The translations under genes and the position numbers were made by a program. The notes beneath the pieces were generated by a model. It was not told the origin of the DNA, ran no database searches, and saw only the letters and a list, made by a program, of their open reading frames with translations. From Gammaproteobacteria bacterium (GTDB lineage: Bacteria; Pseudomonadota; Gammaproteobacteria; JAADJB01): a DNA stretch of 64,000 bases. The stretch spans positions 5,939 to 69,938 of the forward strand of contig JAADJB010000053.1 of NCBI GenBank assembly GCA_013151035.1. The letters run 5' to 3'. Positions 11,493 to 58,821 of the stretch are shown piece after piece; within the stretch, counting starts at the first letter, position 1; the number at the start of each line of letters is the position of its first letter.

Positions 11493-12005
11493 ATGCACAA
11501 AAACTATGGATTTACACTCGTTGAACTTATGATCACTCTAGTGATCGCCGGTATCCTGTTAGGACTCGGAGTACCCGCCATGCAAAGCTTTGAACAAAAC
11601 AATCGTATTACCTCACAGGCCAACAACCTGGTATCGGCACTACAAATCACCCGCAGTGAGGCAATCCGCAGTGGCAGTCGCACGACTATCTGTAGTAGTG
11701 ATGATGGTCTAAGTTGTAGTGCCAGTAATGACTGGTCAACGGGTTGGATGGTCTTTGCCGATGGTAGCACTGCAGGCACTAAAGATAGCACCGATACGAT
11801 TATTCAGGTCTGGTCCAGTCTCAGTGGTGACAGTACATTATCGGGGTCAGCCAGTAATATTCAATACCTTGGCACTGGATACCAGGCAACCGCCAGCACC
11901 CTTTCATTCATCCTGACACGTCCATACTGTAGTGGTGATCAAATCCGTACCATCACTGTTAACCCACAGGGTCGCCCTTACACCAAGACTCATACCTGCC
12001 CATAA
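11493..12005 (+). CDS. fimT: type IV pilus minor pilin, GspH/FimT/FimU family
   Basis: Prepilin leader followed by GFTLVELMITLVIAGIL (N-methylation site plus hydrophobic helix). First gene of the fimU-pilVWXY1Y2E-type operon. Confidence 0.8.
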   Translation: MHKNYGFTLVELMITLVIAGILLGLGVPAMQSFEQNNRITSQANNLVSALQITRSEAIRSGSRTTICSSDDGLSCSASNDWSTGWMVFADGSTAGTKDSTDTIIQVWSSLSGDSTLSGSASNIQYLGTGYQATASTLSFILTRPYCSGDQIRTITVNPQGRPYTKTHTCP

Positions 12006-12008
12006 ATT

Positions 12009-12506
12009 ATGAAGAATAACCTACACAAACAAAATGGATTCAGCATGACCGAGGTTCTGGTTACCGTTGTTATCCTGTCGATTGGACTATTAGGCATCGC
12101 TGGCCTGCAGGCCACGGCACTTAGAAATAATCATAGTGCTTACCTGCGCACTCAGGCTACGCTGCTTAGTTATGATATAGCAGATCGTATGCGTGCCAAT
12201 ATGTCTGCAGTCAATGGCGGCTCCTACAATACACCTGCCGCTGCCAGTGTGGCATCCTGTTCCACTGTAGCCGGCTGCAGCTCTGACCAGATGGCACAGA
12301 ATGATGCCTGGCAATGGCGTCAGGAGGTTGCCTCTTTATTACCCAAGGGAGTGGGTATAGTTTGTCTGGATAGTAGCCCCGATGATGGTACTGGTGTCGC
12401 TGCTCCCGCCTGTAGTGGTGGCGGCAGTATCTATGTCATCAAGATCTGGTGGGATGATGATCGCAGTGGCAACCTCAAACGTTTTGTGATGAGTTTTCAA
12501 CCATGA
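12009..12506 (+). CDS. pilV: type IV pilus modification protein PilV (minor pilin)
   Basis: N-terminus GFSMTEVLVTVVILSIGLLG and operon position. Confidence 0.8.
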   Translation: MKNNLHKQNGFSMTEVLVTVVILSIGLLGIAGLQATALRNNHSAYLRTQATLLSYDIADRMRANMSAVNGGSYNTPAAASVASCSTVAGCSSDQMAQNDAWQWRQEVASLLPKGVGIVCLDSSPDDGTGVAAPACSGGGSIYVIKIWWDDDRSGNLKRFVMSFQP

Positions 12507-13468
12507 ATAGAATACCCGCAATAAAAAACCAACACGGATTGACCCTGGTCGAGGTCATGATATCCATCACCATCAGCCTGATCCTGCTGGCAGGCATCCT
12601 CCAGATCTTTGTTGGTACAAAACAGACCTACCGGGTACAGGAGGCCATATCCAGGATACAGGAGAATGGTCGCTTTGCTATGGATTTTCTGGCCAGAAAT
12701 GCACGCATGGCCGACTTCTGGGGTTGCAACCGGGATATGTCAAACTTTAATAATCTGCTTAATCCTGTCAGTGCGGGCTATATCGACTTTATGGGAGGTG
12801 GTGTGGATGGCACTGATAACACCGGACTTAATGGTTCCGATACACTGATCATACGTGGTGCCATTGGTAGTGGAATCATGGTCGAGACACCCTACATGAA
12901 TACCAACGCAGCCAATATCAAGGTCAACGCAAATAATGGACTACAGCAAAATGATGTCGTTGCCATTAGCGATTGTAAGATGGGTGACATCTTCCAGATC
13001 ACCAATGCCAACCCCAACACCAGTGGTACCGTGGTACACAATACCGGAACTGGCAGCATTGGCAACGCCACTAAAAACCTCTCTACCGTCTATCAAGGCG
13101 ATGCCCAGATCTATATCGCCCGCCAGTACTCCTACCAGATCGCAGCAGGTAACAGTGGTGAACCCGCTCTGTTCCGTAGCACTAATGGTGTCAATGAAGA
13201 ATTAGTGGATGGCATTGAAAATATGCAGATCATCTATGGCGAAGATACCGATGGCGATGGTTCTGCCAATTATTATGTATCCGCTGGCAGTGTTGTTGAT
13301 ATGAATAATGTTGTCAGTGTACGCATCTCACTCATGGTGCGTAACCCGGATGACAAGATCACGGATGCAGGGCGCACCTATAGCTATATGGGTAATACCT
13401 TTAGCGCACCTGATCAACGTCTGCGCAAGATATTCACCACAACCATCACCATTCGTAACCGCGTATAG
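12503..13468 (+). CDS. pilW: type IV pilus assembly protein PilW (minor pilin)
   Basis: N-terminus GLTLVEVMISITISLILLAG, size and operon position. Translationally coupled to pilV. Confidence 0.8.
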   Translation: MNRIPAIKNQHGLTLVEVMISITISLILLAGILQIFVGTKQTYRVQEAISRIQENGRFAMDFLARNARMADFWGCNRDMSNFNNLLNPVSAGYIDFMGGGVDGTDNTGLNGSDTLIIRGAIGSGIMVETPYMNTNAANIKVNANNGLQQNDVVAISDCKMGDIFQITNANPNTSGTVVHNTGTGSIGNATKNLSTVYQGDAQIYIARQYSYQIAAGNSGEPALFRSTNGVNEELVDGIENMQIIYGEDTDGDGSANYYVSAGSVVDMNNVVSVRISLMVRNPDDKITDAGRTYSYMGNTFSAPDQRLRKIFTTTITIRNRV

Positions 13469-13477
13469 AGAATAACC

Positions 13478-14014
13478 ATGAATACAACACCCACTCAAGC
13501 ACCCGGTAATAAAAAACAGCAAGGCGCGGTATTGGTTGTAAGTTTGATGATTCTGCTGGTGATGACCCTGCTCGGTCTATCCAGTATGCAAGGCACCATC
13601 CTGGAAGAAAAAATGTCCGGTAATATGCGTGATCGTAACCTGGCTCTTCAATCTTCCGAGGTTGCCATGCGTGACGGCGAGACCTTTGTTAATAACATCG
13701 TTAACACCAGTCAATTTAATGACACCGAGGGGCTCTATGCCTTAGCCACATCCGACCCGGACTACTTCATTTCAAACACCTGGGTCTCTGCTAGAACCTA
13801 CTCCGGAACTATGCCTGCGGTAAAATCACAACCGCGTTATGTCGTTAAACATGTCGGTGATATCAGTGGTGCCGGTGGCTCAATTAATATCGGTGGTTAC
13901 AGTGATAAACCCGTTGGCGGTAATGTAACCACCTTCCGTATCACCTCAAGAGGTACCGGGGGGCGTGATACGACCCAGGTATTATTACAAACCCATTATG
14001 GAAAACGTTTTTAG
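13478..14014 (+). CDS. pilX: type IV pilus assembly protein PilX (minor pilin)
   Basis: N-terminal hydrophobic segment QQGAVLVVSLMILLVMTLLG and operon position. Confidence 0.75.
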   Translation: MNTTPTQAPGNKKQQGAVLVVSLMILLVMTLLGLSSMQGTILEEKMSGNMRDRNLALQSSEVAMRDGETFVNNIVNTSQFNDTEGLYALATSDPDYFISNTWVSARTYSGTMPAVKSQPRYVVKHVGDISGAGGSINIGGYSDKPVGGNVTTFRITSRGTGGRDTTQVLLQTHYGKRF

Positions 14015-14035
14015 TGTGCTTGTCAGGAGTTAATT

Positions 14036-17000
14036 ATGAATCTATCTTATAAAATATTACTACTTACAACAGGCCTATCCTTACTTGCCTTTAATCAGGC
14101 AATAGCATCACCGGGCACCTTGAGCGAAAGCCCATTATTTTTACGCACCAGTTCAGAAGCCAATATTATGATGGTACTGGATGATTCTGGCAGTATGGAC
14201 TGGGAGATTGTATCAAAGGATTACAACTTCAATGCTCTGTTCACAGGATCACAGCCCGATGGTAGTAACCCAACCAGTTCTGGCAACATAAAAAACCGCG
14301 ACAGTAATGATAGTGGTACAGCAAATTGTAGTATTAACAGCGGTACCTTCACAGGATATACCTATGGTGTTGAGTTTGGTAGTAACACCTACGGTGATAA
14401 TAGCTCTGATTGTAATACAGCTGATGATGAGGCATGGCGTTTCCGCAACAGTGTTTTTAACCCCCTGTATTTTGACCCTAACAAGACCTACGTGCCCTGG
14501 TCTGGCGTTGATATCTCTGGTAATCCATTTACCGATATTAATATCACTAATGCCCCGGATAACCCCTATAACCCTGGTGAAACCATTAACCTGACAGTTA
14601 ATAATTCAAACTGGCTGGGTGGCACCAGTCGTGGCACCTCGGATCGAGATAGTGATGGTACCTTTGACGGCTTTCGTTACTACACCTGGGTCGATGCTGA
14701 TAGCGATGGGCTATTTGATAACGGTGAAGAAACCGAACATCAGATCAAGAACGAATCGGCAACGACTCAACAGAATTTTGCTAACTGGTTCAGTTATTAT
14801 CGTAGCCGTGAATTTCTCACCAAATCATCCTTTGGTCTGGTCATTGCCTCTGCCGAGAATGTCCGTATTGGCCTGACCACGATTAATAACAATGCGGGAC
14901 GTGTTGCCATCCAACCCATGAATGCTGATCCTGCTAGCGGAGCCAAGCGCGCCCTACTGGATAGACTCTACTCCATTAACTCATGGTCTGGAACACCCTT
15001 GCGCAGTACACTGTACAATGCTGGTCGCTATCTGGAATGTAAATCCAATTCCCTGTTCACCTCCTGCCCTGCTCTTTCACAGGCCGATGGCGGTGAGTGC
15101 CAACAAAACTTCAGCATACTGATGACCGATGGTTTTTATAATGGTCATTTCCACCTGGGCAACCAGGATGGTGATAATAACACCCAATGGGATAGCGGCA
15201 CCTCGGGTCCCTTTGGTGACCCTTACTCTGATACTCTGGCTGATATTGCCATGAATTTTTATGAGAGAGATATCCAGACCAGTCTGAATGATATGGTGCC
15301 CATCAAAGCCGGGGTTGATGAAGCGGATCACCAGCACGTCGTTAATTACAGTATTGCCTTCGGTACCACAGGGACTATTTCAGCCATGCCCACCAATACC
15401 ACATCCCCTTTCACCTGGCCCAGCCCCTGGGCAGGTAATCTACAAAAAATTGATGATCTGCGCCATGCCGCCTATAACAGCCGTGGGCTTTTCCTTGATG
15501 CCGAGGACCCCAGCACACTAAGTTCAGCCCTATCTGAAATGGTTGAAGACATCGCTGACCGTACCGGTAGTGCGGCAGCTGTAACCTTTAACACCGGTTC
15601 ACTGGAAGCCAACAGTATGGTCTACCTGGCACTGTTCAATTCTAATCGCTGGAGTGGTCAGTTACTCGCCTATGCCCTTGATGGTAACACCGGTGATATC
15701 AATAGCATCGCAAGCTGGGATACAGCCACTGAATTAAACAACCGTAACCTGGCAGTATCACCCCGCGTCATCCTGACCCATGATGGTAGTACCGGCATCC
15801 CCTTTCAGTGGGCCGACCTGGCAAGCACACAACAAGGTGACCTCAAGACCAATCCAGCGGGAGGCACCGACAGTAATGTCATTGGCGAAGCACGCCTTGA
15901 CTTTATACGCGGTGATCGTAGCAATGAAGGCAGTGGTCTTGGTTTCAGGATGCGTAGCAGTCGTCTTGGTGACATCATTCATTCTGCCCCGGTCTTTGTC
16001 GGTGAACCGGAGGTTAACTGGCCCGACGATTCACCCTTCCCCAGCAGTTCGGGCGGGCAATATTCTGACTTCAAAACCACCTACGCCACCCGTGCTGGTG
16101 TCATCTATGTGGGTGCCAATGATGGGATGTTACACGGTTTCCGATCTGATACAGGTCAAGAGGTACTCGCTTATATCCCCAGCAACATGTTCTCCAGCAG
16201 CACCAATGATGGGATGCATTACCTGACAGATCCCGCCTATAGTCATCGTTATTATGTCGACAACTCCCCGGTTATCAGTGATGCCTTCATTAAAACCGCC
16301 TTAACCGGGAGTGCCAAGTGGTCCTCCATATTGTTAGGTAGCGAACGTAGTGGTGGTCGTGGCATGTTTGCCCTGGATGTTACCGATCCATCAACATTTA
16401 CCGAGGCTAACGCATCAAAGATTGTCATGTGGGAATTTTATGAGGCTGATCTGGGCTACACCTACAGTAAGCCTGTTGTCGCCTTGATGAACAATGGTAA
16501 ATGGGCTGCCATCTTTGGCAACGGCTACAATGATACCGGTGCTGGTAGCGCGCAATTATTCGTGCTGTTCCTTGAAGGTGGCCTTGATGGTGTCTGGACA
16601 TACGGCACCGACTACATAAAGATCGACACCAAGGTTGGAACCTCCAGTGACCGTAACGGTATTGCTGGCCCTGCCGTGATTGATACCGATGGCAATGGCA
16701 CCGCAGATCGTGTCTATGCAGGCGATCTCAGGGGTAATCTATGGGCCTTCGATCTAAGTAATGCGACACCATCCAACTGGGCCTCGGTATTCAAGACTGG
16801 ATCGACACCCAAGCCCATGTTTACCACACCCACCGGACAGCCGATTACCAGTACCCCCGAGGTAGCTCCTCATCCAACAGAGGTAACAACCGCTAGCAAT
16901 ACCCCCAATGTTCTGGTCTATTTTGGTACCGGCCAATATCTGGTCAGTAGCGACAGCAGCACCACCACTGGACAGTCCTTCTACGGGGTCTGGGATGGCG

Positions 17001-17533
17001 GCAAGGCCAATCTGACCCGCAGTGATCTGATAGCCCAGACCTTCGCTGCTGGCAGCCCATCAGATGCCCGTGTACTATCCAGTAACAGCGTACCTTACGA
17101 TGCCAATGGTGGTTCAAAACGCTATGGCTGTTATTTTGATCTACCCGATTCAGGAGAGCGTGTCGTCACCGATCCTGTCATCCGTGGTGACTACGTCTAT
17201 TTTAACTCGATGGTGCCTTCAACTGCGATTTGTACCAGTGGTGGTTATGGCTGGCAGATGTCAATCAAGATCGAGAACTGTGGCCAACCTGATGATGCTG
17301 TCTTTGATTACACCGGTGATAATATTGTCGATGCATCCGATCTGCTCAATGGTAATGCCCTGTCCGGACAAAAATTTAATGAAGGCCTACCCGCGCAATC
17401 ATCCTTCCTCGGCGATAAACAATATACCCCGGGCACCGATACCGGTACCGGTGATGAAATTGTCGCCAAAACAGTAGAAACACTGGGTGGTGTCAACACG
17501 GGTCGTCTTTCCTGGGAAGAACTCTCTAAATAA
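14036..17533 (+). CDS. pilY1: type IV pilus tip-associated adhesin PilY1 (N-terminal vWA domain, C-terminal PilC/PilY beta-propeller)
   Basis: 1165 aa with signal peptide. vWA MIDAS motif VLDDSGSMDWE. The C-terminal region has DGNGTADRVYAGDLRGNLWAFDL PilY1-type propeller/calcium-site motifs. Confidence 0.85.
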   Translation: MNLSYKILLLTTGLSLLAFNQAIASPGTLSESPLFLRTSSEANIMMVLDDSGSMDWEIVSKDYNFNALFTGSQPDGSNPTSSGNIKNRDSNDSGTANCSINSGTFTGYTYGVEFGSNTYGDNSSDCNTADDEAWRFRNSVFNPLYFDPNKTYVPWSGVDISGNPFTDINITNAPDNPYNPGETINLTVNNSNWLGGTSRGTSDRDSDGTFDGFRYYTWVDADSDGLFDNGEETEHQIKNESATTQQNFANWFSYYRSREFLTKSSFGLVIASAENVRIGLTTINNNAGRVAIQPMNADPASGAKRALLDRLYSINSWSGTPLRSTLYNAGRYLECKSNSLFTSCPALSQADGGECQQNFSILMTDGFYNGHFHLGNQDGDNNTQWDSGTSGPFGDPYSDTLADIAMNFYERDIQTSLNDMVPIKAGVDEADHQHVVNYSIAFGTTGTISAMPTNTTSPFTWPSPWAGNLQKIDDLRHAAYNSRGLFLDAEDPSTLSSALSEMVEDIADRTGSAAAVTFNTGSLEANSMVYLALFNSNRWSGQLLAYALDGNTGDINSIASWDTATELNNRNLAVSPRVILTHDGSTGIPFQWADLASTQQGDLKTNPAGGTDSNVIGEARLDFIRGDRSNEGSGLGFRMRSSRLGDIIHSAPVFVGEPEVNWPDDSPFPSSSGGQYSDFKTTYATRAGVIYVGANDGMLHGFRSDTGQEVLAYIPSNMFSSSTNDGMHYLTDPAYSHRYYVDNSPVISDAFIKTALTGSAKWSSILLGSERSGGRGMFALDVTDPSTFTEANASKIVMWEFYEADLGYTYSKPVVALMNNGKWAAIFGNGYNDTGAGSAQLFVLFLEGGLDGVWTYGTDYIKIDTKVGTSSDRNGIAGPAVIDTDGNGTADRVYAGDLRGNLWAFDLSNATPSNWASVFKTGSTPKPMFTTPTGQPITSTPEVAPHPTEVTTASNTPNVLVYFGTGQYLVSSDSSTTTGQSFYGVWDGGKANLTRSDLIAQTFAAGSPSDARVLSSNSVPYDANGGSKRYGCYFDLPDSGERVVTDPVIRGDYVYFNSMVPSTAICTSGGYGWQMSIKIENCGQPDDAVFDYTGDNIVDASDLLNGNALSGQKFNEGLPAQSSFLGDKQYTPGTDTGTGDEIVAKTVETLGGVNTGRLSWEELSK

Positions 17534-17547
17534 AGGTAGAAACAATC

Positions 17548-18009
17548 ATGAAAACGATTACATATATTTTGTTATCCGCATTACTGGCAACATCAACCTT
17601 GTTGCAGGCTGCACAAAAAAAACCGGACTATGGTGGTGCCTTTACAGCGGGTTTTAACAAAATAGAAAATAAGGCAAGTCCGAAAGAAAAATCCGAAATC
17701 CAACCTGAATCAGAGGATAAATCAACCAGCAATAATAATACAATAACCACTCTACCGGACAGCTATCCTGAAAGCTTCCAGCGTATCGGCTATATTGATA
17801 GTATCCATGATCAGGATCGCACGATTAGCCTGAATGATGCCTCCTACCAAATAGCTAGCATTATACCCATTCATACACTGAAGGGTGATAGCATTCCCTT
17901 ATCCATGCTTAAACCTTATATACAAATAGGTGTTAGCCTCATAGCCAAAGAAAATATCATCACTGAAATATGGATATTGCCTGATAATTACGGCATTAGC
18001 AGTGAGTAA
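17548..18009 (+). CDS. small secreted hypothetical protein in the PilY2 position of the operon
   Basis: 153 aa with a signal peptide. Lies between pilY1 and pilE, where Pseudomonas has pilY2. No sequence similarity recognised. Confidence 0.45.
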   Translation: MKTITYILLSALLATSTLLQAAQKKPDYGGAFTAGFNKIENKASPKEKSEIQPESEDKSTSNNNTITTLPDSYPESFQRIGYIDSIHDQDRTISLNDASYQIASIIPIHTLKGDSIPLSMLKPYIQIGVSLIAKENIITEIWILPDNYGISSE

Positions 18010-42645: not shown

Positions 42646-44853
42646 ATGAAACGCTATAACCACTTGTTATTATTTTGTATTTTATTGTCTGCAGAAACTT
42701 TAGCAGCAGCGGGGGACAACGGAGCAGGGATAGATCTCTGGCAAATATCCGGTAGTAATACTTTACGCTATGATTATTACAATAACTCTGGTGACATTGC
42801 GGCATCACCCTATCGTTTCAGTAATACACAGATTTACGATGAGTTTAATCTCAATTTCAAGCGGCAACTATCACCCTATAACCGGCTACAAGGCAATGTC
42901 AGTGGCTTATTTAATGATTCATTATATCGCAGCCGTTTTCAGGGTGGCAGTATAGAACGCTTCAGCTTGAAACAGGAAAATGGAGCAGTTAATCTGCCGT
43001 ACCGTGCCGAAGTCGGTGACTTATTTGCCTTTCAGAGTTTTCGTACCATCCAGCGTACTCTGAAGGGCGCACAGATTGAACTGCAACCTGATTTGGCTAC
43101 CGATACCCAACACTCTATCATAGTCTTTACCGGTAGTGCCTCAGCAGATTGGCGTGATATCAAATCTACGGATGGCTGGAGCAGTGGTATTTCCTGGTTA
43201 GCACAAGGTTCTGCCTGGGGCAAGCTTGCGGCCAATTTTCTCAACAATTACAAGAGCACAAATGCAACAACATTAACCGCTTCAACACAGCAGACGATAT
43301 ATAGCCTTGCCTACGAAAATCAGCCGCAGTGGTTTGGTCAAGCACTGACGCTTGAAGGAGAAGCGGGTTATTTTAATGGTGATCATGCTGACATTGCTGG
43401 TGTGGGTAGCGGCAAAGACAAGCAAGGCAGTGCGCTGTTCGCACAAATATCAGGCCGCCCTACTACATTGCCTGCACTGAATTACCGTCTTCGTTACGAA
43501 TCCTACGATCAGGATTATCGTCCTGATACCGCCTCGATTCAGCCAGACCGTCTCTCCAGAGAGGGTCATTTGTCCTGGCGTTTTAACAATGGCCTAACAT
43601 TACGCGGCCGACGGCAAAATTTTTATAGCAACAAGGGTACCGTCAACCCGCTGACAACCGATGTCTATGGCCTTAATCTTAGCGGGCCATTTTCAATTGG
43701 AAACGTATCCCCCCTGTCAGGCAATATTGATGCCTTCAAACAAACAGCAGAGAGTCGTAACCGTGCCACGATTACCGATACCCGAGTGGTCAATATAAAT
43801 GTCAGTCAAAGCCTGAGTCGGGATATTTCTATTCGCGGCGGATTTTTTTATTCGAATATCAATAACAAAGCTATTCCACAAAACCTCTCCATTACGCGAC
43901 AATATCTAACCGGTCTCAATTTCAAGGCTCAATGGCGGGGTTTCTCCGGCACTATATCTCCAGCATTTGTAATAAGGAGGTTGGATAACTCAGGCAAACG
44001 CACTAGCTGGGAGCGCAATCCCACCTTGAGCCTCAATGCCAGTCGTGGCCCACATACACTCTCATTTTCTCACGCGGTGCTGAGTCAGGGAGGAGCAGCC
44101 GCAGGCTTGGGGCAGTTAACTCGGACTAGTGGGATGAATTATCGCTATACACAAAAAAGCTATACTTTTGGGCTCGAAGGTAACTGGTATCAACGCAACC
44201 CCGATAGTCCCCTTAGCCGTAACACGGATGCCTGGCGTATTGGTGCTTACTGGACGTTAAACTTTGATAAACCAGTAAAGCAGGTCATCGCGGGGTCGTT
44301 AGCTGCGTCATCATCAGGAATGCGGGCTGTCGCACCATCATCACGACTAGCGCTTGATCTCACAAGACTGACACCAGGGATGATGGAAGGAGAGGCACGT
44401 AAGATCGCAATAAATAGTGATTTGGGTAAACCGACAAAACAACCGGGGCTATTGGTCTGGTTTAACCGCATTTTCCGTGATCTGGATCAAAGCCAACGAT
44501 TGGTCATACAACTGTTAAATAGTGAGCTCGCGCGTTCAGCGATTATTATTGATTTTGATGACGTGGGTGACAGTCAAAGTGTTGAACAAACCTTTGAACG
44601 AGTACGCCAGCAATTATTGTTGCGCTATGGTACTCCTGACTCATTTTTCGAGCAGGGAGATTTTACTGCGAACATAGCACTGGAATTATCTTCCGAGCGT
44701 TTTTATCGTAGCATGCAATGGGAAATAGCAGATGGTGTACTGCGCTTTGGCATACCACGTAGGCTGGATGGACAAGTACGGATGGAAATACAGTTTGCAC
44801 GTGAATTCCCGACTATTAAAGAGTCTCTATGGAGTCTGGAGGAATTACAATGA
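42646..44853 (+). CDS. exported hypothetical protein, probable outer-membrane beta-barrel with about 190-aa C-terminal extension
   Basis: Signal peptide MKRYNHLLLFCILLSAETLAAA. Long run of alternating amphipathic beta-strand-like segments rich in Y/R/N/G, with an internal OMP-like terminal-strand signature (RIGAYWTLNF) near residue 545, followed by a further non-barrel-like domain. Confidence 0.5.
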   Translation: MKRYNHLLLFCILLSAETLAAAGDNGAGIDLWQISGSNTLRYDYYNNSGDIAASPYRFSNTQIYDEFNLNFKRQLSPYNRLQGNVSGLFNDSLYRSRFQGGSIERFSLKQENGAVNLPYRAEVGDLFAFQSFRTIQRTLKGAQIELQPDLATDTQHSIIVFTGSASADWRDIKSTDGWSSGISWLAQGSAWGKLAANFLNNYKSTNATTLTASTQQTIYSLAYENQPQWFGQALTLEGEAGYFNGDHADIAGVGSGKDKQGSALFAQISGRPTTLPALNYRLRYESYDQDYRPDTASIQPDRLSREGHLSWRFNNGLTLRGRRQNFYSNKGTVNPLTTDVYGLNLSGPFSIGNVSPLSGNIDAFKQTAESRNRATITDTRVVNINVSQSLSRDISIRGGFFYSNINNKAIPQNLSITRQYLTGLNFKAQWRGFSGTISPAFVIRRLDNSGKRTSWERNPTLSLNASRGPHTLSFSHAVLSQGGAAAGLGQLTRTSGMNYRYTQKSYTFGLEGNWYQRNPDSPLSRNTDAWRIGAYWTLNFDKPVKQVIAGSLAASSSGMRAVAPSSRLALDLTRLTPGMMEGEARKIAINSDLGKPTKQPGLLVWFNRIFRDLDQSQRLVIQLLNSELARSAIIIDFDDVGDSQSVEQTFERVRQQLLLRYGTPDSFFEQGDFTANIALELSSERFYRSMQWEIADGVLRFGIPRRLDGQVRMEIQFAREFPTIKESLWSLEELQ

Positions 44854-47800
44854 ACGGGCGATTATCTGTAAATAAATGCGCGCAGCAGGTATTGATTGCG
44901 ATACTATTGTTACTGACCATCTCGATCGCTTTTATCGGCACTAGTATAGTTCAAGCTGCTGATTTCGCTGATGCGCCAGACTCTGACCTAAATAAGTGTC
45001 GCAAGTATTATCAGCCTAGCTGTGAATATCATTACCCTACTCTGGAAGTCAATAATGGTGCTCGTCATTTGAATACCCGTGCGGCATGGCTTGGCAACTC
45101 TGTTTCAGATGAAACAGCACCCAAATCAAGTGATGACGACGATTTTCTATCGACCCAGAAGATTTACAATGCCACATGGAATGGATCACTTTATATCAAT
45201 GTGCTGATTGATCACAACAGTGATGGCGACTGGGACGATCCCGGTGAATGGGTTGTTCAGAACAATAGCTATGACATTCCTAAGGGAAAATCACAAAGCA
45301 TCGGCATCGCTGGTCCGCCGCCGGGTAAGTGGTACCGAATCACCTTAACCGGAAGACCCGTAACCGCCTATACAGGCAAAGGCATTTTTTCAATTGGGGA
45401 AACCGAAGATTACTTGATTGGCGCCCAAAAGAAAAAGGGGGGGGAGAAGGACTCACTTCCGTTTCCACCACTGGAATTTTGTGGGGATGGCATTATCAAC
45501 CTTCCCGGTGAACAGTGTGATCCGCCCGGTGGCGGTTGTCCGGCTGGTCTGGCCTGCAACATAAACTGCCTGTGTGACGGTGAAGAGGGACTACCGCCTA
45601 TACCTGGTGCTTCTCCAGGTTCATCTTCTCCAGGCCTATCTTCTCCAGGCTCGGTTTCTCCAGATTCACTATTAGCACCTCAAAAACTGAAAGGACTAGA
45701 CCGTATCACTACCGGAAGCGGTCGGTGTCGATTACCTTGGCAAGGTGGCACAACCCCATGCGATGAGTGCATAAAAGGTCATGCGGGACAGAATTATGCC
45801 AAAGTATGTTATCAGCATGAGAATGAAATTGAAAAAAACCGTTTGCATGCTGAGGAACAGACGATAAAAATAAACCTACTCTATAATGCATACAATCATG
45901 AAAAAAATCGTTTAAAAAATAAAAACAGCGATCCTCTCAAGGGGATTGAATTACGAAACATCTATAAGAAATGGGCTAAAGAGAAACCATCTTACGATAG
46001 AAAGATTAAGGCATGGAAAAAAACCAAGGAGAATTGGAAGCAAGTAAAACCTGCTGTCATTGAAGACTCATTGGAAATGGCTCTCAAAAAATGCAAGGAT
46101 GAAGGGATTTGCGGCAACAGCAGTAAACAAGTTAAAACTGAAGAGCCTCTGCAAGAAGATGAACGCTGTACATCTCTGATCAAGCCCAAGACCTTTAAAA
46201 ACAACCTTGCACTGTTAAACGAAGCCAATCGAAATAACCTGGGAGCAGGAAAAGCAAGTAAGGTCTTAATGAATGGAATGATTGCGAAGGCAATGAATCC
46301 ATATTCTATTATTCTAGATGCAAAAAAGATTGGCAGCCGGTCACTAACTGCTGAATTTGATTCACCTGGGAAAAAAATAAAAACAAGTATCACCAAAATC
46401 AATGATTGTGATTCAGTTGTTTCCACAGGAATACGAAAAAAACATTATGAGTTTACTCTCATTATTGAAAAGTATGAAATTGATAAAACAATTAGTTTCT
46501 TTAATCCAACTGAAGCAATTATTAACATAGCTGATCTTGCTTCAGCAGCTACATCTATTCCCATACAATTAACCTGGATCAGCATAAATGGAGCTATGAA
46601 TGCTATTGATAAAGAATGGGCTGCGGGTGGATTTGAAGTCCTGGATTTTGCGTTTACAGCAGGGGGAGCTTTAGTTAAGGGAAGCCGTGCTGTTGCCGAA
46701 GGTGGAAAAGCTGTTGGTCATATTGGTTTGAAAACAATTAAGAAAGGATCTAAAACGGTAGTTAAATCGACTATCAAACAAAGGTTAAAAAGTGAATTAT
46801 CTTCAAGTGCCACTGATATTTTAACGCCAAAGGGTACGGGTAATAAAGAAAATGTTAATAACAAATCAATGTATATTGATCAGGTTAAATCTGATATAAA
46901 ATCCCGGCTTGATAAAAATCCACTGATCAATACCGTAAAGGCGGAAAAGCAGAGCATTTTGGGGCGGCTTAAACGAGGATTGCTAGGGGAACACTATATT
47001 CATCTTAAAGGAACGATAGAAATCCCTGTGGCTTATTGCATAAAGCTTAAAAACACATCTACTGAGTACAGCAGCGATATTATAACCAATTGTGAGAATA
47101 TCAAAGAACCTGTTCTGGAGGATACTATAGTAACAGGTGATGACAGCCTACCAACTGAAAGCGGTTCAAAAGACGTGAATGGCTTGAATGGTTTGTTTAA
47201 TATGCAGCGTATCAACCCGTGTCCTGCTTGTAGCAAAACTTATGCAGACTTTGCTGCTATACAGGCAAAAGCAAAACCACTAAAGGAAAAGATTATTCGC
47301 CAATTTGGTAGTGTTCGAGAGTGGCGAATAATGCTGGGGACAGCGGGTAAAATATTCGGCGGTTCTGCCGGTCAATTAAGGGAAAAAGCGATCAATTTGA
47401 AGAATGAAGTGGATTCGCTCAATAAACAATCAAACAAGACGCTTCTAAGTTTAACCCTATGCATGGGGAATTTATGTACTGGTACTAACAAAACCGCTTT
47501 AGAAGACCTGCCGATTGAAAGCGATTCAAATTGCCCTGATTGTGGAATTGAACTGGTGCAGGTTATAGCGGGTAGAGGGAATAACCCCTTGAGTCCGACA
47601 GACCCTGTTTCAGCGGGAACGACTAGTACCATTGTCGATACGCCCGCTACGGGTGGCGGCGGGGTTTCTGGCGACACGATACCGCCAGTCATTTCTGCGC
47701 CTGCCTCTATTACGGTAGCGGCAACGGATATGAATGGAATATCTGTGGCCAATGCAACCATTCAGGCTTTTCTTGCTGCGGCAACGGCGACAGATAATGT

Positions 47801-48638
47801 TGCTGTGGTAGGCTCGGTGACAAACAATGCACCACTGGTTTTTCCGGTGTTACCGAATATGCCCACAGGCAACACAACGAATGTGATTTTTTCTGCCGTC
47901 GATGCAGTAGGCAATATTGGTACCTCTACCAGTAGCGTGACTGTGGTGGATCAATCAGCACCTGGCCTGACCTTGCCAACATCAATTACCGTGACGGCAT
48001 CTTCTGGTGCTACAAGTGTTCCTGCTAGTAACGCCACTATAAGCACGTTTTTAAATGCTGCGCAAGCCCTTGATGACGTAGATGGCATGATAGCTGCACC
48101 TGCAGTGTCACCTCCAGCCAATTTCTCAGTAGGCACGACGACAGTGACCTTTAAAGCTACAGACGGCGCAGGAAATGTGCAAACAGGTACCCGTACGGTT
48201 ACCGTATTAGCATCGGCAGGATTGCCAGCGATAATAGATGGACGTTGGCAAATGACATGTGATTTGGCATTTGGTTCTGCAGCGGATGCCACTACTGTCA
48301 ATACATTGATGGGCACGCCAATGCCAAGCAATCCAATGTTGGTGATCACGGGGAACAGTAGCAATTTTGTAATAACCACTTTACCTCCAGGCGATTTTGC
48401 AGCAGGACCAGCGACAGAAAATCTTGCGACGACAGAAAATGATCTGATGCTGGGTTTTGCCAGTACCATAATATCCAGCAATGGTCATACCTTTAATGTT
48501 GGCATGGGAGAAACATGGACTTTCGATTTCCCTGTAGCGGGTCAACACGGACTACAATTATCATGGCAGATATTTACTCAAGCGCCTGACCCGATTATCA
48601 GCGTGCAGTACAATTGCAGCGGAAATAAAGCACCATGA
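44850..48638 (+). CDS. large exported surface protein: GEVED domain, Myxococcus-type Cys-rich repeat, Pro/Ser linker, Lys-rich helical region, two HYR-like repeats
   Basis: ATGA overlap with the upstream gene; N-terminal signal/anchor. DFADAPDSD...GARHL...DDDDF...IDHNSDGDWDDPGEW...WYRITL...GETEDYLIG fits the GEVED domain pattern. CGDGIINLPGEQCDPPGGGCPAGLACNINC fits the Myxococcus cysteine-rich repeat. Two ~85-aa repeats (TIPPVISAPASITVAATD... and LPTSITVTASSG...GTTTVTFKATDGAGNV) fit the HYR domain. Confidence 0.6.
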   Translation: MNGRLSVNKCAQQVLIAILLLLTISIAFIGTSIVQAADFADAPDSDLNKCRKYYQPSCEYHYPTLEVNNGARHLNTRAAWLGNSVSDETAPKSSDDDDFLSTQKIYNATWNGSLYINVLIDHNSDGDWDDPGEWVVQNNSYDIPKGKSQSIGIAGPPPGKWYRITLTGRPVTAYTGKGIFSIGETEDYLIGAQKKKGGEKDSLPFPPLEFCGDGIINLPGEQCDPPGGGCPAGLACNINCLCDGEEGLPPIPGASPGSSSPGLSSPGSVSPDSLLAPQKLKGLDRITTGSGRCRLPWQGGTTPCDECIKGHAGQNYAKVCYQHENEIEKNRLHAEEQTIKINLLYNAYNHEKNRLKNKNSDPLKGIELRNIYKKWAKEKPSYDRKIKAWKKTKENWKQVKPAVIEDSLEMALKKCKDEGICGNSSKQVKTEEPLQEDERCTSLIKPKTFKNNLALLNEANRNNLGAGKASKVLMNGMIAKAMNPYSIILDAKKIGSRSLTAEFDSPGKKIKTSITKINDCDSVVSTGIRKKHYEFTLIIEKYEIDKTISFFNPTEAIINIADLASAATSIPIQLTWISINGAMNAIDKEWAAGGFEVLDFAFTAGGALVKGSRAVAEGGKAVGHIGLKTIKKGSKTVVKSTIKQRLKSELSSSATDILTPKGTGNKENVNNKSMYIDQVKSDIKSRLDKNPLINTVKAEKQSILGRLKRGLLGEHYIHLKGTIEIPVAYCIKLKNTSTEYSSDIITNCENIKEPVLEDTIVTGDDSLPTESGSKDVNGLNGLFNMQRINPCPACSKTYADFAAIQAKAKPLKEKIIRQFGSVREWRIMLGTAGKIFGGSAGQLREKAINLKNEVDSLNKQSNKTLLSLTLCMGNLCTGTNKTALEDLPIESDSNCPDCGIELVQVIAGRGNNPLSPTDPVSAGTTSTIVDTPATGGGGVSGDTIPPVISAPASITVAATDMNGISVANATIQAFLAAATATDNVAVVGSVTNNAPLVFPVLPNMPTGNTTNVIFSAVDAVGNIGTSTSSVTVVDQSAPGLTLPTSITVTASSGATSVPASNATISTFLNAAQALDDVDGMIAAPAVSPPANFSVGTTTVTFKATDGAGNVQTGTRTVTVLASAGLPAIIDGRWQMTCDLAFGSAADATTVNTLMGTPMPSNPMLVITGNSSNFVITTLPPGDFAAGPATENLATTENDLMLGFASTIISSNGHTFNVGMGETWTFDFPVAGQHGLQLSWQIFTQAPDPIISVQYNCSGNKAP

Positions 48639-49162
48639 AGATCATTTTTGTAAGATATTGCATGGTATGCCTATTGGCAATAGTGGCCGGGGCTAGTCCG
48701 GGACTTAACCTGAAGGCGAGTGAATTTCGCGCATTTAGCCTGATTCGTTCACCATCCAGTGAACGTAGCAACCTGGTTTCGCAGTCTTCAGTTGCGTTAA
48801 AAACTGATATTCAGGTTGTATCAAGCAAGATGGTGCAGGATGCTGTAAGCAAGCTGGTTGCAGCCTGGAATAGCAATGGCCTAAGTACAATAGTCACTGA
48901 TAGCTTTATTGATAAATCTCGTTTGCTGGATTCTGTTAATAGTCAGATACCCCGCGATGCACAATTACGCGTGCTTGCCATTCAAAATACACGCACCCTT
49001 AATCAACATGTAGCTGATTCACCGAGTGGCAAGCTCCTGGTGAGTTTGGTTTCTACAACTTTGCGTACACAACTTGAGTTTAATGATCCTGCTCAGGGTT
49101 TTCAACGTCGGGAAGGGACAAATGAATATATTCTGCGTATTAAGCAGCGATACACGCCCTGA
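48635..49162 (+). CDS. small secreted hypothetical protein (175 aa)
   Basis: ATGA overlap with the upstream gene; signal peptide MKIIFVRYCMVCLLAIVAGASPG; no recognisable family. Confidence 0.5.
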   Translation: MKIIFVRYCMVCLLAIVAGASPGLNLKASEFRAFSLIRSPSSERSNLVSQSSVALKTDIQVVSSKMVQDAVSKLVAAWNSNGLSTIVTDSFIDKSRLLDSVNSQIPRDAQLRVLAIQNTRTLNQHVADSPSGKLLVSLVSTTLRTQLEFNDPAQGFQRREGTNEYILRIKQRYTP

Positions 49163-55191: not shown

Positions 55192-56043
55192 ATGAATTCA
55201 ATAACAGCACCCAGCGAATATCATATCAATGTCGATCATAATGATGAGATAGCCCTTGATCTATTGGCACAACATACCACCTATTCCCGACAGGGTATCA
55301 AACAAGCCATGACCAAAGGTGCCGTCTGGTTAAGCCATGGCACACAAACCACACGCCTGCGTCGCGCAAAAAAAAACCTCAACAAAGGCGATCAATTGCA
55401 CTTGTACTACGATGAAGGGATACTGGCAACAGAACCTCCAAAGCCCACACTCATTGCGGATGAGGAAGGTTATAGTATCTGGTACAAACCCTATGGCCTG
55501 TTATCACAGGGCTCTAAGTGGGGCGATCACTGCACTATTAATCGCTGGATTGAACAACATCAAAAACCTCAACGTCCCGCTATCATCGTGCATCGTCTGG
55601 ATCGTGCGGCTACCGGTCTAATGATTATTGCCCATCAAAAACGAATCGCGGCTGCCTTCTCCAGAATATTTCAGCAACGCGCCATCAGCAAACACTACCA
55701 GGCTATTGTGCAGGGGCATTTCCCTGTTGCAGAGAAAGCCCTGTGCATTGATCAAGCACTGGATGATCGACCGGCAATAAGCCATGTCACAGCGCTGGGT
55801 TATGACCGTGAAAAAAATCAATCACTGGTCAAGGTTGTTATTGAGACCGGACGCAAACATCAGATCCGACAACACCTGGCATCCATCGGCTTTCCTATTG
55901 TTGGTGATCGTCTGTATGGTTCACAACAACAGGAATATGAACAGGATTTACAACTCACAGCCTGTTATCTGGCGTTTGAGTGCCCGGTAGATCATCAGCA
56001 AAAGAAATTCCGATTAGCGGCACATCTTTGTCCTTGTTTTTAA
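55192..56043 (+). CDS. RluA-family pseudouridine synthase
   Basis: HRLDRAATGLMIIAHQ catalytic Asp motif and HQIRQHL...GDRLYG C-terminal motif. Confidence 0.85.
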   Translation: MNSITAPSEYHINVDHNDEIALDLLAQHTTYSRQGIKQAMTKGAVWLSHGTQTTRLRRAKKNLNKGDQLHLYYDEGILATEPPKPTLIADEEGYSIWYKPYGLLSQGSKWGDHCTINRWIEQHQKPQRPAIIVHRLDRAATGLMIIAHQKRIAAAFSRIFQQRAISKHYQAIVQGHFPVAEKALCIDQALDDRPAISHVTALGYDREKNQSLVKVVIETGRKHQIRQHLASIGFPIVGDRLYGSQQQEYEQDLQLTACYLAFECPVDHQQKKFRLAAHLCPCF

Positions 56044-56048
56044 GTGCA

Positions 56049-57818
56049 TCAGGGTTGCAGTGCATCAATAACAGCAACAATACTACTATTGCTAACACCC
56101 ACTGGTAACACCACGCCCGGAGTTACATCGCCCGCTCCGGTCAAACGCCGTTGTATCATCAGCCCATCATCGGCATCAACCTCACCATCACCATCCACAT
56201 CATAGGCCAGACCAGCATTAGTAATGCGTGCAACAATAGACGCATTATCCTCTCCCGCAGGCAAGAGTACACCCGGGGTTACATCACTCGCTCCGGTTAA
56301 ACGTCGTTGTATCATTAGTCCATCATCGGCATCGACATCGCTATCGCCATCCACATCAGTACTGGCAACAGAGGCTACACTGGACACAGTAATGGTCTTG
56401 CTCAACAGGGTACGGAAACCTGAGCCAGACTCTGAACCTGAATTGAGCACCCCATAACGACTTTGACCATCATCCAGTGCCACATAAATAGTATAGGTTC
56501 CATCCTGGGTAAAGGTGACATTGCGTGAGCTTGAACCTGGAAGCACAGTTAAATTATCAGCATCAACGTTAAAAAGCACTCCCTGAGTCGGAATATACCA
56601 ATTCACATCAACCGCATCACCCTCACCATCGGTCACTGCCGTCAGATTCAGCGCAACCGTTAATGGTGCTGCACCACTGCTAACCGACGCACTAAAACTA
56701 GCCGTCGGTGCCTGATTAAAAGATACCGAGGTATTCACCGACAAGGCCTTACTGGCTGCAAGCCGATTATTAATCAACAGATAAACTGTCCAGGCGCCCG
56801 GAATCGTGCCCATCGCTTCCAGCGTGGCAACAGTAACACCATTGGTACAAATACTGTTGGCAGAACAATTAAGGTTCACTGTTGTCCCATCATAGTAATA
56901 ACCCTGTGGATCCACATAGACCAGTTCCACAGCCATGGCAATGCCGGAACTTTGTATCATAGACCAGACATAGGTTCCCGTGGTACTCGAGTCAACCTGG
57001 GTTACCGTTGTATTGTTTGCCAAATTAACGTTTCCTGAGCCATCATCCACACTAAAATACACATCCTGGATACGCGCATCAATCACGACAGAAGGTGGAC
57101 TATATTGCACCGCCGGAACCAGGACAGCCGGAGGACCATACAGAGCCTGCACCGCTGCAATATCATCATCACGCGGGAAGTTCAGGGAATTATAGGGGTT
57201 GGAATACATCACCGATGCCGGGTTGTCTGAGTGACCCAGTCCCAGAAGATGCCCCAACTCATGCACCATCACCCGCACAAAGTTAGCCCGTGCACGCTCA
57301 TCCAGGGTACTTCCCCAGATCTGTTGATTATTATTCATCAACACACTGCCATCACGATAGGCACAATAACCTAGTGCCTGAAATTCTGTTCCGGTACAAC
57401 TCGAAGCCGCTCCCCCTTGTCCAGCGGCACCACTCAAGGAACCTGACCAGGCAATCACCACCTGATCATCATCACTATTTGTGTAATCAGAATTGGAAAT
57501 ACCATTACCAGCAGGCTGGAAGCTGACCCCACTGACATTTTCCCACGCCTGCATTGCCTCCTGAATTAACCCCAGTGTGACCTGTTGGTCAAAAAACAAG
57601 GCAGGGGCATTATTCGGATTATAGCTATAAGGAACCACGGCATCAGGCCAGCGACCAAAATCACTGGCATTACTAATACCCAGATACAGGGGTTGTAAAA
57701 TGATATCTGTATCTGCATACAGCGGTGTCATCAGGACACTACATAGAACAAAAAGGGTAGCAATGCCCCCTTTTATTATTTTTTTAACGGTAGCCGCCAC
57801 CCAATACGTAAATATCAT
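56049..57818 (-). CDS. secreted metzincin-type zinc metalloprotease with PKD-like domain and two C-terminal dockerin-like Ca-binding repeats
   Basis: HELGHLLGLGHSDNPASVMY is HExxHxxGxxH plus a Met-turn. The middle has a PKD-like segment (SFSASVSSGAAPLTVALN...GTYTIYVALDDG). The C-terminus has a tandem DVDGDSDVDADDGLMIQRRLTG / DVDGDGEVDADDGLMIQRRLTG. The ORF's 5-prime end overlaps the next gene, so the true start is probably MIFTYW or later. Confidence 0.7.
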   Translation of the reverse strand: MIFTYWVAATVKKIIKGGIATLFVLCSVLMTPLYADTDIILQPLYLGISNASDFGRWPDAVVPYSYNPNNAPALFFDQQVTLGLIQEAMQAWENVSGVSFQPAGNGISNSDYTNSDDDQVVIAWSGSLSGAAGQGGAASSCTGTEFQALGYCAYRDGSVLMNNNQQIWGSTLDERARANFVRVMVHELGHLLGLGHSDNPASVMYSNPYNSLNFPRDDDIAAVQALYGPPAVLVPAVQYSPPSVVIDARIQDVYFSVDDGSGNVNLANNTTVTQVDSSTTGTYVWSMIQSSGIAMAVELVYVDPQGYYYDGTTVNLNCSANSICTNGVTVATLEAMGTIPGAWTVYLLINNRLAASKALSVNTSVSFNQAPTASFSASVSSGAAPLTVALNLTAVTDGEGDAVDVNWYIPTQGVLFNVDADNLTVLPGSSSRNVTFTQDGTYTIYVALDDGQSRYGVLNSGSESGSGFRTLLSKTITVSSVASVASTDVDGDSDVDADDGLMIQRRLTGASDVTPGVLLPAGEDNASIVARITNAGLAYDVDGDGEVDADDGLMIQRRLTGAGDVTPGVVLPVGVSNSSIVAVIDALQP

Positions 57819-58821
57819 AGCCCGCCTCACTCAATAGATAGGCCGCTGCTGAACTACGTCGGCCCGTGTCACAAAAAACAATATAAGGTTTTTCTTCATC
57901 CAGCTCATGTAGTCGTAACCGCAGGAGATAAAGAGGAATGTTGATACTACCTTCAATCGTTGAATTATTAAATTCACTTTCCAGACGGACATCCAGCCAT
58001 ACTGCACCATCATCCCGCACCAACTCCTGACCATCTTCAAGGTCAACCTCATGCATAACCGGCGCCTTTAACAGATTATCAAAATCCGCCTTTGACATTC
58101 GCATCAAGGTACCATTGGTCAACATGGTAATGGTGGCATTGCGCTCACATTCCGTAATCAAGGCCTCTTCTCCAAAACCATCGCCTTGTTGTAATTCTGC
58201 CAGACGCACATCGGTACCCGTGGGAGACTTACGCGTCACCTCGGCACGACCCTGACTAATAATGTAATAATAATCACCCACATCGCCCTGACAGATGACA
58301 GCCTCACCCGCTTTCATGGGCATCTCTTCCATCCGTTTGAACACTTCCTGAATATTGGCAGGGGGTATCTGGTAGAAGATATTGGACTGCAACATGCGTG
58401 TCATCCAATCGGTGTTAGCATCATCATCCTCATCCAGTTCGGAGACCACATAACCGGCAGACTGATCCCAGGTCAACAGGATATCCAGTAAATCATTATC
58501 AATACGAATAAACTGAATATCAGAACGCGCTGTCGCGGTCATATTACGCGGCTGATGATGAGCAACCGGGTGGCGTGCCTCAGGCGTATCTGCCCTAATG
58601 ACAGTATTATCACCATGCTCACCGTGCAAATCCAGCGTACCTTTAATCAGATAAACAGCCTGATTATCCTGCCCACCTTTTTTAAACAACACAGAACCTG
58701 ATGCGGCTGATTCCAGCGCAGTCTTTTTATAGACTTCTTCAAAATTTTCTGACGATAAACCATCGATTGGAACCAGGCTCGCGAGAACCCGGCGATCCAC
58801 CGTCTCTTTTTCATCTACCAT
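57784..58821 (-). CDS. cyclic-nucleotide-binding domain protein fused to a C-terminal rhodanese-like domain
   Basis: cNMP-binding signature GDGFGEEALITECERNATI, plus a degenerate first CAP-like domain. The C-terminus has a rhodanese-like active-site loop FCDTGRRS. Confidence 0.65.
   Translation of the reverse strand: MVDEKETVDRRVLASLVPIDGLSSENFEEVYKKTALESAASGSVLFKKGGQDNQAVYLIKGTLDLHGEHGDNTVIRADTPEARHPVAHHQPRNMTATARSDIQFIRIDNDLLDILLTWDQSAGYVVSELDEDDDANTDWMTRMLQSNIFYQIPPANIQEVFKRMEEMPMKAGEAVICQGDVGDYYYIISQGRAEVTRKSPTGTDVRLAELQQGDGFGEEALITECERNATITMLTNGTLMRMSKADFDNLLKAPVMHEVDLEDGQELVRDDGAVWLDVRLESEFNNSTIEGSINIPLYLLRLRLHELDEEKPYIVFCDTGRRSSAAAYLLSEAGYDIYVLGGGYR

Follow-up and report, generated by a model that had tools for sequence, protein, structure and literature searches.

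A matrixin-type metalloprotease with an extended dockerin-like tail encoded in a gammaproteobacterial metagenome-assembled genome

A 64 kb stretch of contig JAADJB010000053.1 from a gammaproteobacterial metagenome-assembled genome (MAG), referred to here in its full length as the window, encodes on its minus strand a metalloprotease that combines a predicted N-terminal export signal, a matrixin (Peptidase_M10) catalytic domain, two β-sandwich domains and a duplicated C-terminal tail. The tail is a dockerin-like module of an extended type, built from two repeats of 52 residues, and is not a canonical type I dockerin. It is matched by the Pfam dockerin hidden Markov model (HMM), recurs on many unrelated secreted proteins and is used at either terminus. 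The reading preferred here, to which a probability of about 0.6 is assigned, is that the protein is an exported and active matrixin-type endopeptidase that is held by a partner on or close to the cell surface through its tail, a calcium-loaded, dockerin-like domain of four helices.

A preliminary description of this DNA reported two C-terminal repeats of 22 residues. Both 'DVDGDxxVDADDGLMIQRRLTG' segments exist, beginning at residues 492 and 544, and do not arise by chance, but the direct repeat in the DNA (105 nt, 82% identity, positions 56098–56202 and 56254–56358) has a period of 156 nt, so that the true unit is 52 residues long; the copies agree at 36 of the 50 residues compared. Each repeat consists of a loop, a helix, about 17 extended residues and a second helix. 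The portion beyond the loop and first helix runs on for approximately 30 residues ('TGASDVTPGVLLPAGEDNASIVARITNAGLAY') and includes the second helix, which in repeat 2 stops two residues short of the stop codon. Both loops comprise 12 residues, with Asp at the coordinating positions 1, 3, 5, 9 and 12, and are followed by an Arg-containing helix.

The proposal that these repeats resemble dockerins, and are not generic EF hands, withstood an HMM comparison. Pfam Dockerin_1 (PF00404) matches residues 491–563 with 27.2 bits (cutoff 22.9 bits, E = 4.4 × 10−6, profile positions 2–56 of 57), and no EF-hand family in Pfam matches the window protein even at E ≤ 10. Relatives of the module score 14–32 bits with the same model, several of them lying below the cutoff at 14–21 bits. 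When 37 diverse module copies were combined into a profile and compared with the sequences in the PDB, dockerins came first, with E-values from 4 × 10−9 to 7 × 10−5 (8x3a and 8x39 at about 4 × 10−9, 1ohz_B at 2 × 10−7, and 2ccl_B, 4fl4 and 4uyq down to 7 × 10−5). Calmodulins followed at about 2 × 10−4, and no EF-hand protein was matched better than the dockerins. The dockerin alignment covers just the loop and first helix of each repeat. Among the 37 modules Asp8, Asp17, Arg23, Asp60, Asp69 and Arg75 are invariant, loop positions 3 and 12 being included in this set.

The AlphaFold2 model of the 107-residue tail, calculated from the 37-sequence alignment, is one compact four-helix domain with a predicted local distance difference test score (pLDDT) of 97.5 and a predicted template-modelling score of 0.90. 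Helices are predicted at module residues 15–25, 43–57, 67–78 and 95–105, so that each of the two duplicated calcium-type loops is followed by an α-helix, as in dockerins, with the helices starting at loop position 10. Type I dockerins such as that of Clostridium thermocellum Xyn10B (PDB entry 1OHZ, chain B) and the double dockerin 8X39 share with the module the duplicated 12-residue calcium loops, with Asp or Asn at positions 1, 3, 5, 9 and 12 and a helix after each loop. They also share the terminal position on secreted enzymes, the many paralogous carriers per genome and the symmetric halves. The two halves of one module show a median identity of 71%, compared with 40% between repeats of different proteins, and in 18 of 33 modules the best partner of a repeat is its own sister; classical dockerins likewise keep an internal symmetry between their halves. 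The module differs in carrying Ala-Asp at loop positions 10–11, where the type I dockerins of C. thermocellum have Ser-Thr, and in its host, a Gram-negative MAG.

A word-indexed search with the 111-residue tail returned no matches, not even the protein from which it was taken. With an exhaustive HMMER search through 1.84 billion representative proteins the module was located in 87 clusters (42 with E ≤ 10−10), nearly all of the matches spanning the whole unit of about 100 residues. The carriers are mutually unrelated. In a Pfam scan that left out several giant proteins of 1,000–2,400 residues, clear domains comprise PKD/TIG repeat arrays, an M64 peptidase and an FGE-sulfatase-like enzyme, and two further carriers gave sub-threshold matches only, one leishmanolysin-like and the other sortilin/BNR-like. 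In most carriers 0–5 residues lie between the module and the C-terminus. The module directly follows the signal peptide in about seven of 39 close relatives and in seven Magnetococcales loci, and is internal in one or two proteins.

Two further proteins with the module, NOX08807.1 (GXP22_04840) and NOX09197.1 (GXP22_06890), apparently belong to the MAG of the window, an assignment that rests on adjacent NOX accessions and an identical organism label. Both fall in the subgroup closest to the window module (60–68% identity). Elsewhere in the family, including a Magnetococcales protein (P0111) that NCBI/PGAP labels 'dockerin type I repeat-containing protein', the same 2 × 52-residue module is found at 45–52% identity, and the domains of these carriers differ from the M10 protease of the window. 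The combination of an M10 domain with the module is absent from 20 protease homologues and from the 87 module carriers, the window protein aside.

A pattern scan of the GTDB species representatives yielded 42 loci (L001–L042), all in MAGs of Magnetococcales, which are magnetotactic cocci, and at least 28 of them in Magnetococcus sp. YQC-5 (JAMOBH01). The scan used patterns that favoured a 'DATDGVLILR' subgroup and could not recover the genome of the window itself; the exclusively Magnetococcales result thus sets a minimum for the taxonomic range. The module proteins of these loci range from 190 to 2,190 residues and carry the module at either terminus. A metagenome scan directed at the subgroup of the window module found at least one locus (L044).

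The protease itself belongs to a small family in which the core is constant and the C-terminus varies. Twelve homologue clusters (P0002–P0013; 31–36% identity by BLASTP and 29–34% in the family alignment) have in common the signal peptide, the M10 domain and the Ig-like and PKD-like domains. Their C-termini consist of FG-GAP-like repeats in P0002 (a sub-threshold Pfam match), a domain of about 190 residues without a Pfam match in P0003–P0008 and another of about 170 residues, likewise without a Pfam match, in P0009, P0011 and P0013, while P0010 and P0012 have no extra domain. The dockerin-like tail is unique to the window protein in this 13-member family. A constant core with differing C-terminal domains fits the view of the tail as an exchangeable targeting or anchoring appendage.

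The metzincin core reported in the preliminary description, with an HExxHxxGxxH motif and a Met-turn, is borne out and can be placed more precisely in the M10 (matrixin) family. Pfam Peptidase_M10 (PF00413) matches residues 77–232 with 56.8 bits (cutoff 24 bits), and the closest solved relatives are vertebrate matrix metalloproteinases (MMPs), the best sequence matches in the PDB being MMP-12, MMP-1, MMP-20, MMP-16, MMP-7 and MMP-3. About 150 residues align with MMP-12 (PDB entry 1OS2), which has the same HExxHxxGxxHS zinc site with the Met-turn seven residues later; the stretch 'GLGHSDNPASVMY' parallels the corresponding one in MMP-12. The zinc site together with the Met-turn reads HELGHLLGLGHS...SVMY (residues 190–209), and its counterpart in MMP-12 ends in AVMF. 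Ser201 directly follows the zinc motif, and Met208 of the Met-turn (57207–57209) lies in 'SVMYS'. The motif residues His, Glu, Gly, His, Gly, His and Ser are invariant, and the Met-turn is conserved, in the window protein and its 12 homologues. The protein retains the catalytic Glu together with the three His ligands, and the protease is predicted to be catalytically intact.

Two characteristic zymogen features of MMPs (subfamily M10A) are a prodomain with a cysteine switch and a structural zinc site with His/Asp/His/His ligands in the S-loop, and neither was found. The protease sequence contains no PRCG motif or PRCGxPD cysteine switch anywhere, FGRW, where the domain starts, lies only about 10–20 residues after the signal peptide, and no His occurs in the segment aligned with the structural-zinc S-loop region of MMP-12 ('HGDDHAFDG...AHAF...AHFD'). 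Judged by its sequence, the catalytic domain is a stripped-down, minimal MMP-like matrixin without a cysteine-switch prodomain or structural-zinc His ligands. Karilysin, the MMP-like enzyme of the bacterium Tannerella forsythia, also lacks a long cysteine-switch prodomain and a hemopexin domain. MMPs and karilysin continue into a hemopexin domain or the C-terminal domain (CTD) of the type IX secretion system (T9SS), in contrast to the Ig-like, PKD-like and dockerin-like tail of the window protein.

The preliminary description named only one β-sandwich, a PKD-like one; an additional Ig-like domain lies between the protease and that domain. This first β-sandwich is all-β in the AlphaFold2 model (pLDDT mostly 82–94, with two ten-residue blocks at 70 and 75) and matches no Pfam family. 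Foldseek returned only generic tandem Ig-like folds with low template-modelling (TM) scores, such as PECAM-1, transglutaminase C-terminal barrels and complement MG domains. The second β-sandwich is also all-β (pLDDT about 55–93). As a single sequence it does not reach the Pfam PKD thresholds (PF18911/PF00801), the PKD_4 match scoring 8.2 bits (cutoff 27 bits, E = 3.5), and there is no PKD structure among the top 50 Foldseek matches, all of which are generic Ig-like folds. A profile of 13 PKD-like sequences aligned by hhalign with a profile of 12 Pfam-verified PKD repeats gave a probability of 95.9% (E = 5.2 × 10−9 over 76 columns), and because of this match 'PKD-like' holds as a statement of homology. 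The domain assignment in the preliminary description was thus sound, although it requires profile–profile comparison and a structure model where a single-sequence HMM is insufficient.

The same description called the protein secreted. A signal-like N-terminus is present, and a hydrophobic leader precedes the conserved LGI..FGRW motif in all 12 protease homologues in the family alignment; the N-terminal features point to a Sec signal peptide and to secretion, and the latter follows from this N-terminus only. Such a signal would carry the protease beyond the inner membrane. An alternative reading of 'LFVLC' as a lipoprotein signal was rejected because Leu at position −1 does not suit the lipobox consensus.

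The sequence of events envisaged for the preferred reading starts with Sec export of the zinc endopeptidase, in which the two Ig-fold domains, the second of them PKD-like, would serve as spacers or binding domains between the enzyme and the module. Following export the module would fold on taking up two Ca2+ ions, as suggested by the chemistry of its loops. Its behaviour across proteins suggests that it would then act as a portable protein–protein docking plug, attaching the protease to a partner, either on the cell surface or within an extracellular assembly, much as cohesins hold dockerins. We infer calcium binding, passage across the outer membrane, docking and the nature of the partner; the domain composition, the match to the dockerin HMM and the recurrence of the module at either terminus of unrelated secreted proteins are observed directly.

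The module could instead be a self-contained, EF-hand-type calcium stabilizer or switch for the protease with no dedicated partner. The second calcium loop has helices on both sides in the AlphaFold2 model, forming a complete helix–loop–helix, calmodulins are within reach of the module profile, sub-threshold EF-hand matches in Pfam occur in relatives (P0033) and the searches for a cohesin in the window and around the paralogous gene were negative. Nevertheless, the window protein passes the Dockerin_1 cutoff while showing no EF-hand match, and dockerins lead calmodulins in the profile search by about five orders of magnitude. If the module served to stabilize one enzyme, its presence on dozens of unrelated carriers, N-terminal in some and C-terminal in others, would be surprising, as would its replacement by other tails in homologues of the protease, and part of the module family is fused to cohesin-like domains. 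This explanation is considered unlikely, although it retains appreciable weight. A much less probable one regards the module as a signal at the C-terminus for sorting or secretion (of the T9SS CTD, PEP-CTERM, GlyGly-CTERM or RTX-like type I secretion system kind), which would mediate export or covalent anchoring to the surface before being removed. The proximity of the module to the C-terminus in most carriers and its confinement to signal-peptide-bearing, apparently extracellular proteins would agree with such a role, but the N-terminal modules directly after signal peptides, together with the few internal ones, are incompatible with a terminal sorting tag. In addition, the module lacks a transmembrane helix and GGxGxD nonapeptides, is predicted to be a well folded globular domain and resides on a protein that already has a Sec signal.

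The repeats might also be a chance duplication of Asp-rich low-complexity sequence and the Dockerin_1 match a compositional artefact, given that this match exceeds the cutoff by only 4 bits, that several relatives stay below it and that the word-indexed search with the module found nothing. The 42 clusters matched at E ≤ 10−10 over the whole 100-residue module, the six residues that are invariant in 37 diverse copies and the confident AlphaFold2 model effectively refute this possibility.

A number of results also weigh against a tail that docks the protease onto a partner. The architecture is not that of a dockerin in the strict sense: classical dockerins have about 60–70 residues and three helices, whereas the repeats of the window protein follow a 52-residue period rather than being segments of about 22 residues joined by a short linker, each has about 30 extra residues with a helix of its own, and the module totals about 105 residues and four helices. 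The fold comparison, made with Foldseek against the PDB, gave no significant match, the best being a dockerin at E = 0.35 and a TM-score of 0.24. No cohesin (PF00963) was found in the 64 kb window by Pfam scans of all open reading frames (ORFs) of at least 150 residues, nor did four cohesin-like query domains match its six-frame translation in phmmer, in agreement with the preliminary description, and no cohesin adjoins the paralogous module gene of the same organism. The gene has no recognizable promoter of its own and overlaps its upstream neighbour by 35 nt. Finally, a β-domain found together with the module in Magnetococcales is only marginally cohesin-like (17.3 bits in Pfam against a cutoff of 24.1 bits; 24% probability by hhalign to the cohesin-like group) and has no sequence match in a PDB profile search.

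This β-domain, of about 160 residues, occurs in a conserved protein of about 300 residues in three Magnetococcales genomes, between a signal peptide and the dockerin-like module, and in one of them (L004) the gene lies directly downstream of another module-bearing gene. The β-domain has only six homologues, none of which is from the MAG of the window. The protein is a candidate adaptor or receptor. A closer connection to cohesins is seen in a distant subgroup of metagenomic proteins (P0064, P0082 and P0089) with the module pattern 'D.D.DG..NFRDVVFIYRRLMGL'. The domain directly before the module in these proteins matches only cohesins in the PDB, over its full length (5nrm/5nrk with the best E-value of 1.9 × 10−4, 6kg8/6kgc, 1g1k, 2vn5, NagJ and 3ul4). 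This fusion to cohesin-like domains places the extended module in the cohesin–dockerin world. An ASH/HYDIN-type Ig domain lies ahead of the cohesin-like domain in P0082 and P0089; P0064 lacks that region.

Cohesin–dockerin pairs, the classic modular extracellular assembly, find wide use in protein engineering. With an extended form one could trace the means by which Gram-negative bacteria in the environment keep proteases and adhesins attached on the outside of the cell, and a new orthogonal calcium-dependent docking pair could be derived from it. Few MMP-like enzymes are known from bacteria, and the protease would extend their number by a matrixin with no prodomain or structural zinc site and with exchangeable targeting tails. 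Should the module prove to be a mere calcium-stabilizing appendage, the protein would be an ordinary modular exoprotease.

A larger picture, rather doubtful but possible, is that the module represents a distinct and structurally uncharacterized branch of the dockerin superfamily behind a Gram-negative extracellular docking network. Dozens of proteases, PKD adhesin-like arrays and exoenzymes per genome would plug into a still unrecognized receptor, possibly a divergent cohesin such as the β-domain of the 300-residue protein, and the matrixin would contribute proteolysis to a surface assembly of a cellulosome-like but non-cellulolytic kind.

The statement in the preliminary description that dockerins are rare outside cellulolytic clostridia went too far, considering the presence of the module in 87 protein clusters and the dockerin-bearing peptidases of Cloacimonadota (PMC8542988). 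Candidatus Stygibacter, a member of the latter, encodes signal-peptide peptidases with C-terminal dockerins and a cohesin scaffoldin, which its authors interpret as a cellulosome-like complex that degrades polypeptides (PMC8542988). The window protease resembles these peptidases in having a predicted signal peptide and a C-terminal dockerin-type module and in originating from a non-cellulolytic lineage outside the Firmicutes. It differs in that the Stygibacter peptidases are of the S8 or C25 families, whereas the window enzyme is an M10 peptidase with the extended 2 × 52-residue module, and in that Stygibacter has a scaffoldin with tandem cohesins, whereas no cohesin was detected in the window.

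The protein as such is already known: the 589-residue product is 100% identical to NCBI entry NOX10080.1 from a gammaproteobacterial MAG, which is named 'matrixin family metalloprotease' and lists precomputed Pfam matches to PF00413 and PF00404, and relatives of the tail already carry the dockerin type I label. No paper in the searchable literature mentions dockerin together with matrixin, and a search for dockerin with 'Magnetococc' gave just a surface-display review that is apparently unrelated. This literature apparently contains no description of the extended 2 × 52-residue architecture, the confident four-helix prediction without a fold neighbour in the PDB, the amplification in Magnetococcales or the combination with an M10 protease.

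The features of the gene, and those of the 300-residue Magnetococcales protein, are listed in Table 1.

Table 1. Positions of the gene, its encoded domains and motifs in the window, and of the Magnetococcales β-domain proteins in their own loci
Feature	Coordinates	Strand	Remarks
Whole gene	56049..57818	-	589 aa, probable ATG start to stop codon; longest ORF from GTG reaches 57830
Predicted Sec signal peptide MIFTYWVAATVKKIIKGGIATLFVLCSVLMTPLYA	57714..57818	-	Lys-rich n-region, hydrophobic core, L-Y-A; cleavage probably before DTD
Matrixin (Peptidase_M10) catalytic domain	57132..57683	-	Residues ~50-233 of the 593-aa ORF
Zinc-binding motif HELGHLLGLGH	57231..57263	-	Residues 190-200; regular expression on the translation, aligned to MMP-12
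First β-sandwich, Ig-like	56727..57092	-	Residues ~247-368; conserved VDPxGY, Cys...Cys pair, PGxW
Second β-sandwich, PKD-like	56379..56720	-	Residues ~371-484; insertion before last strand
Dockerin-like repeat 1	56202..56357	-	Residues 492-543; Ca loop DVDGDSDVDADD, helix GLMIQRRL, extended segment, helix NASIVARITNAGLAY
Dockerin-like repeat 2	56052..56201	-	Residues 544-593; Ca loop DVDGDGEVDADD, helix GLMIQRRL, extended segment, helix NSSIVAVIDAL
~300-aa β-domain + module protein	L006 167-1081; L030 5365-6318; L004 6284-7228		

The gene is a single intact ORF (56049–57830), with 593 codons counted from a GTG in the ORF list. The ATG at 57818, the fifth codon, is the likelier start because a GAGG sequence lies 6 nt upstream. 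This ATG is located in the overlap (57784–57818) with the 3′ end of an upstream gene on the same strand that encodes a cyclic-nucleotide-binding and rhodanese protein. At its other end the gene stops 5 nt from the stop codon of a convergent gene for an RluA-like pseudouridine synthase (56043–56049). No convincing promoter or terminator was recognized between the gene and its flanking genes.

Further away, three sparsely annotated or unannotated ORFs (42646–49162) that all run along the plus strand occupy the stretch of lowest GC content in the window (0.415 at 46–48 kb), where the GC skew becomes positive. The first (735 residues, signal peptide, no Pfam match) looks like an outer-membrane β-barrel with a C-terminal globular domain, the second (1269 residues) is Lys-rich in its middle and shows weak GEVED and HYR domains, and the third has 175 residues, a signal peptide and no Pfam match. 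The three may constitute an acquired surface-protein cluster. These large ORFs (42.6–49.2 kb) were considered as scaffoldins and rejected because they give no cohesin signal. A complete type IV pilus minor-pilin operon (11493–18009, plus strand) encodes GspH/FimU-like and Tt1218/PilV-like pilins, PilW, PilX and a PilY1 of 1165 residues, followed by an ORF of 153 residues without a Pfam match that is possibly PilE-like.

The paralogous module gene mentioned above is that of NOX08807.1, the neighbourhood of which was viewed in a metagenomic contig apparently from the same organism (L043; JGI 3300005096, contig Ga0072503_126362). Look-ups of exact sequences gave a record for the JGI variant P0107 and none for P0001, P0023 or P0044. 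The neighbours of the module gene are housekeeping genes, among them those for ATP sulfurylase, Mfd and a DsrE-like protein (a weak match), and the contig also carries a ParDE toxin–antitoxin pair adjoining an Mrr-type restriction enzyme. The ATP sulfurylase and the weak DsrE-like match hint that the host may be a sulfur-oxidizing gammaproteobacterium.

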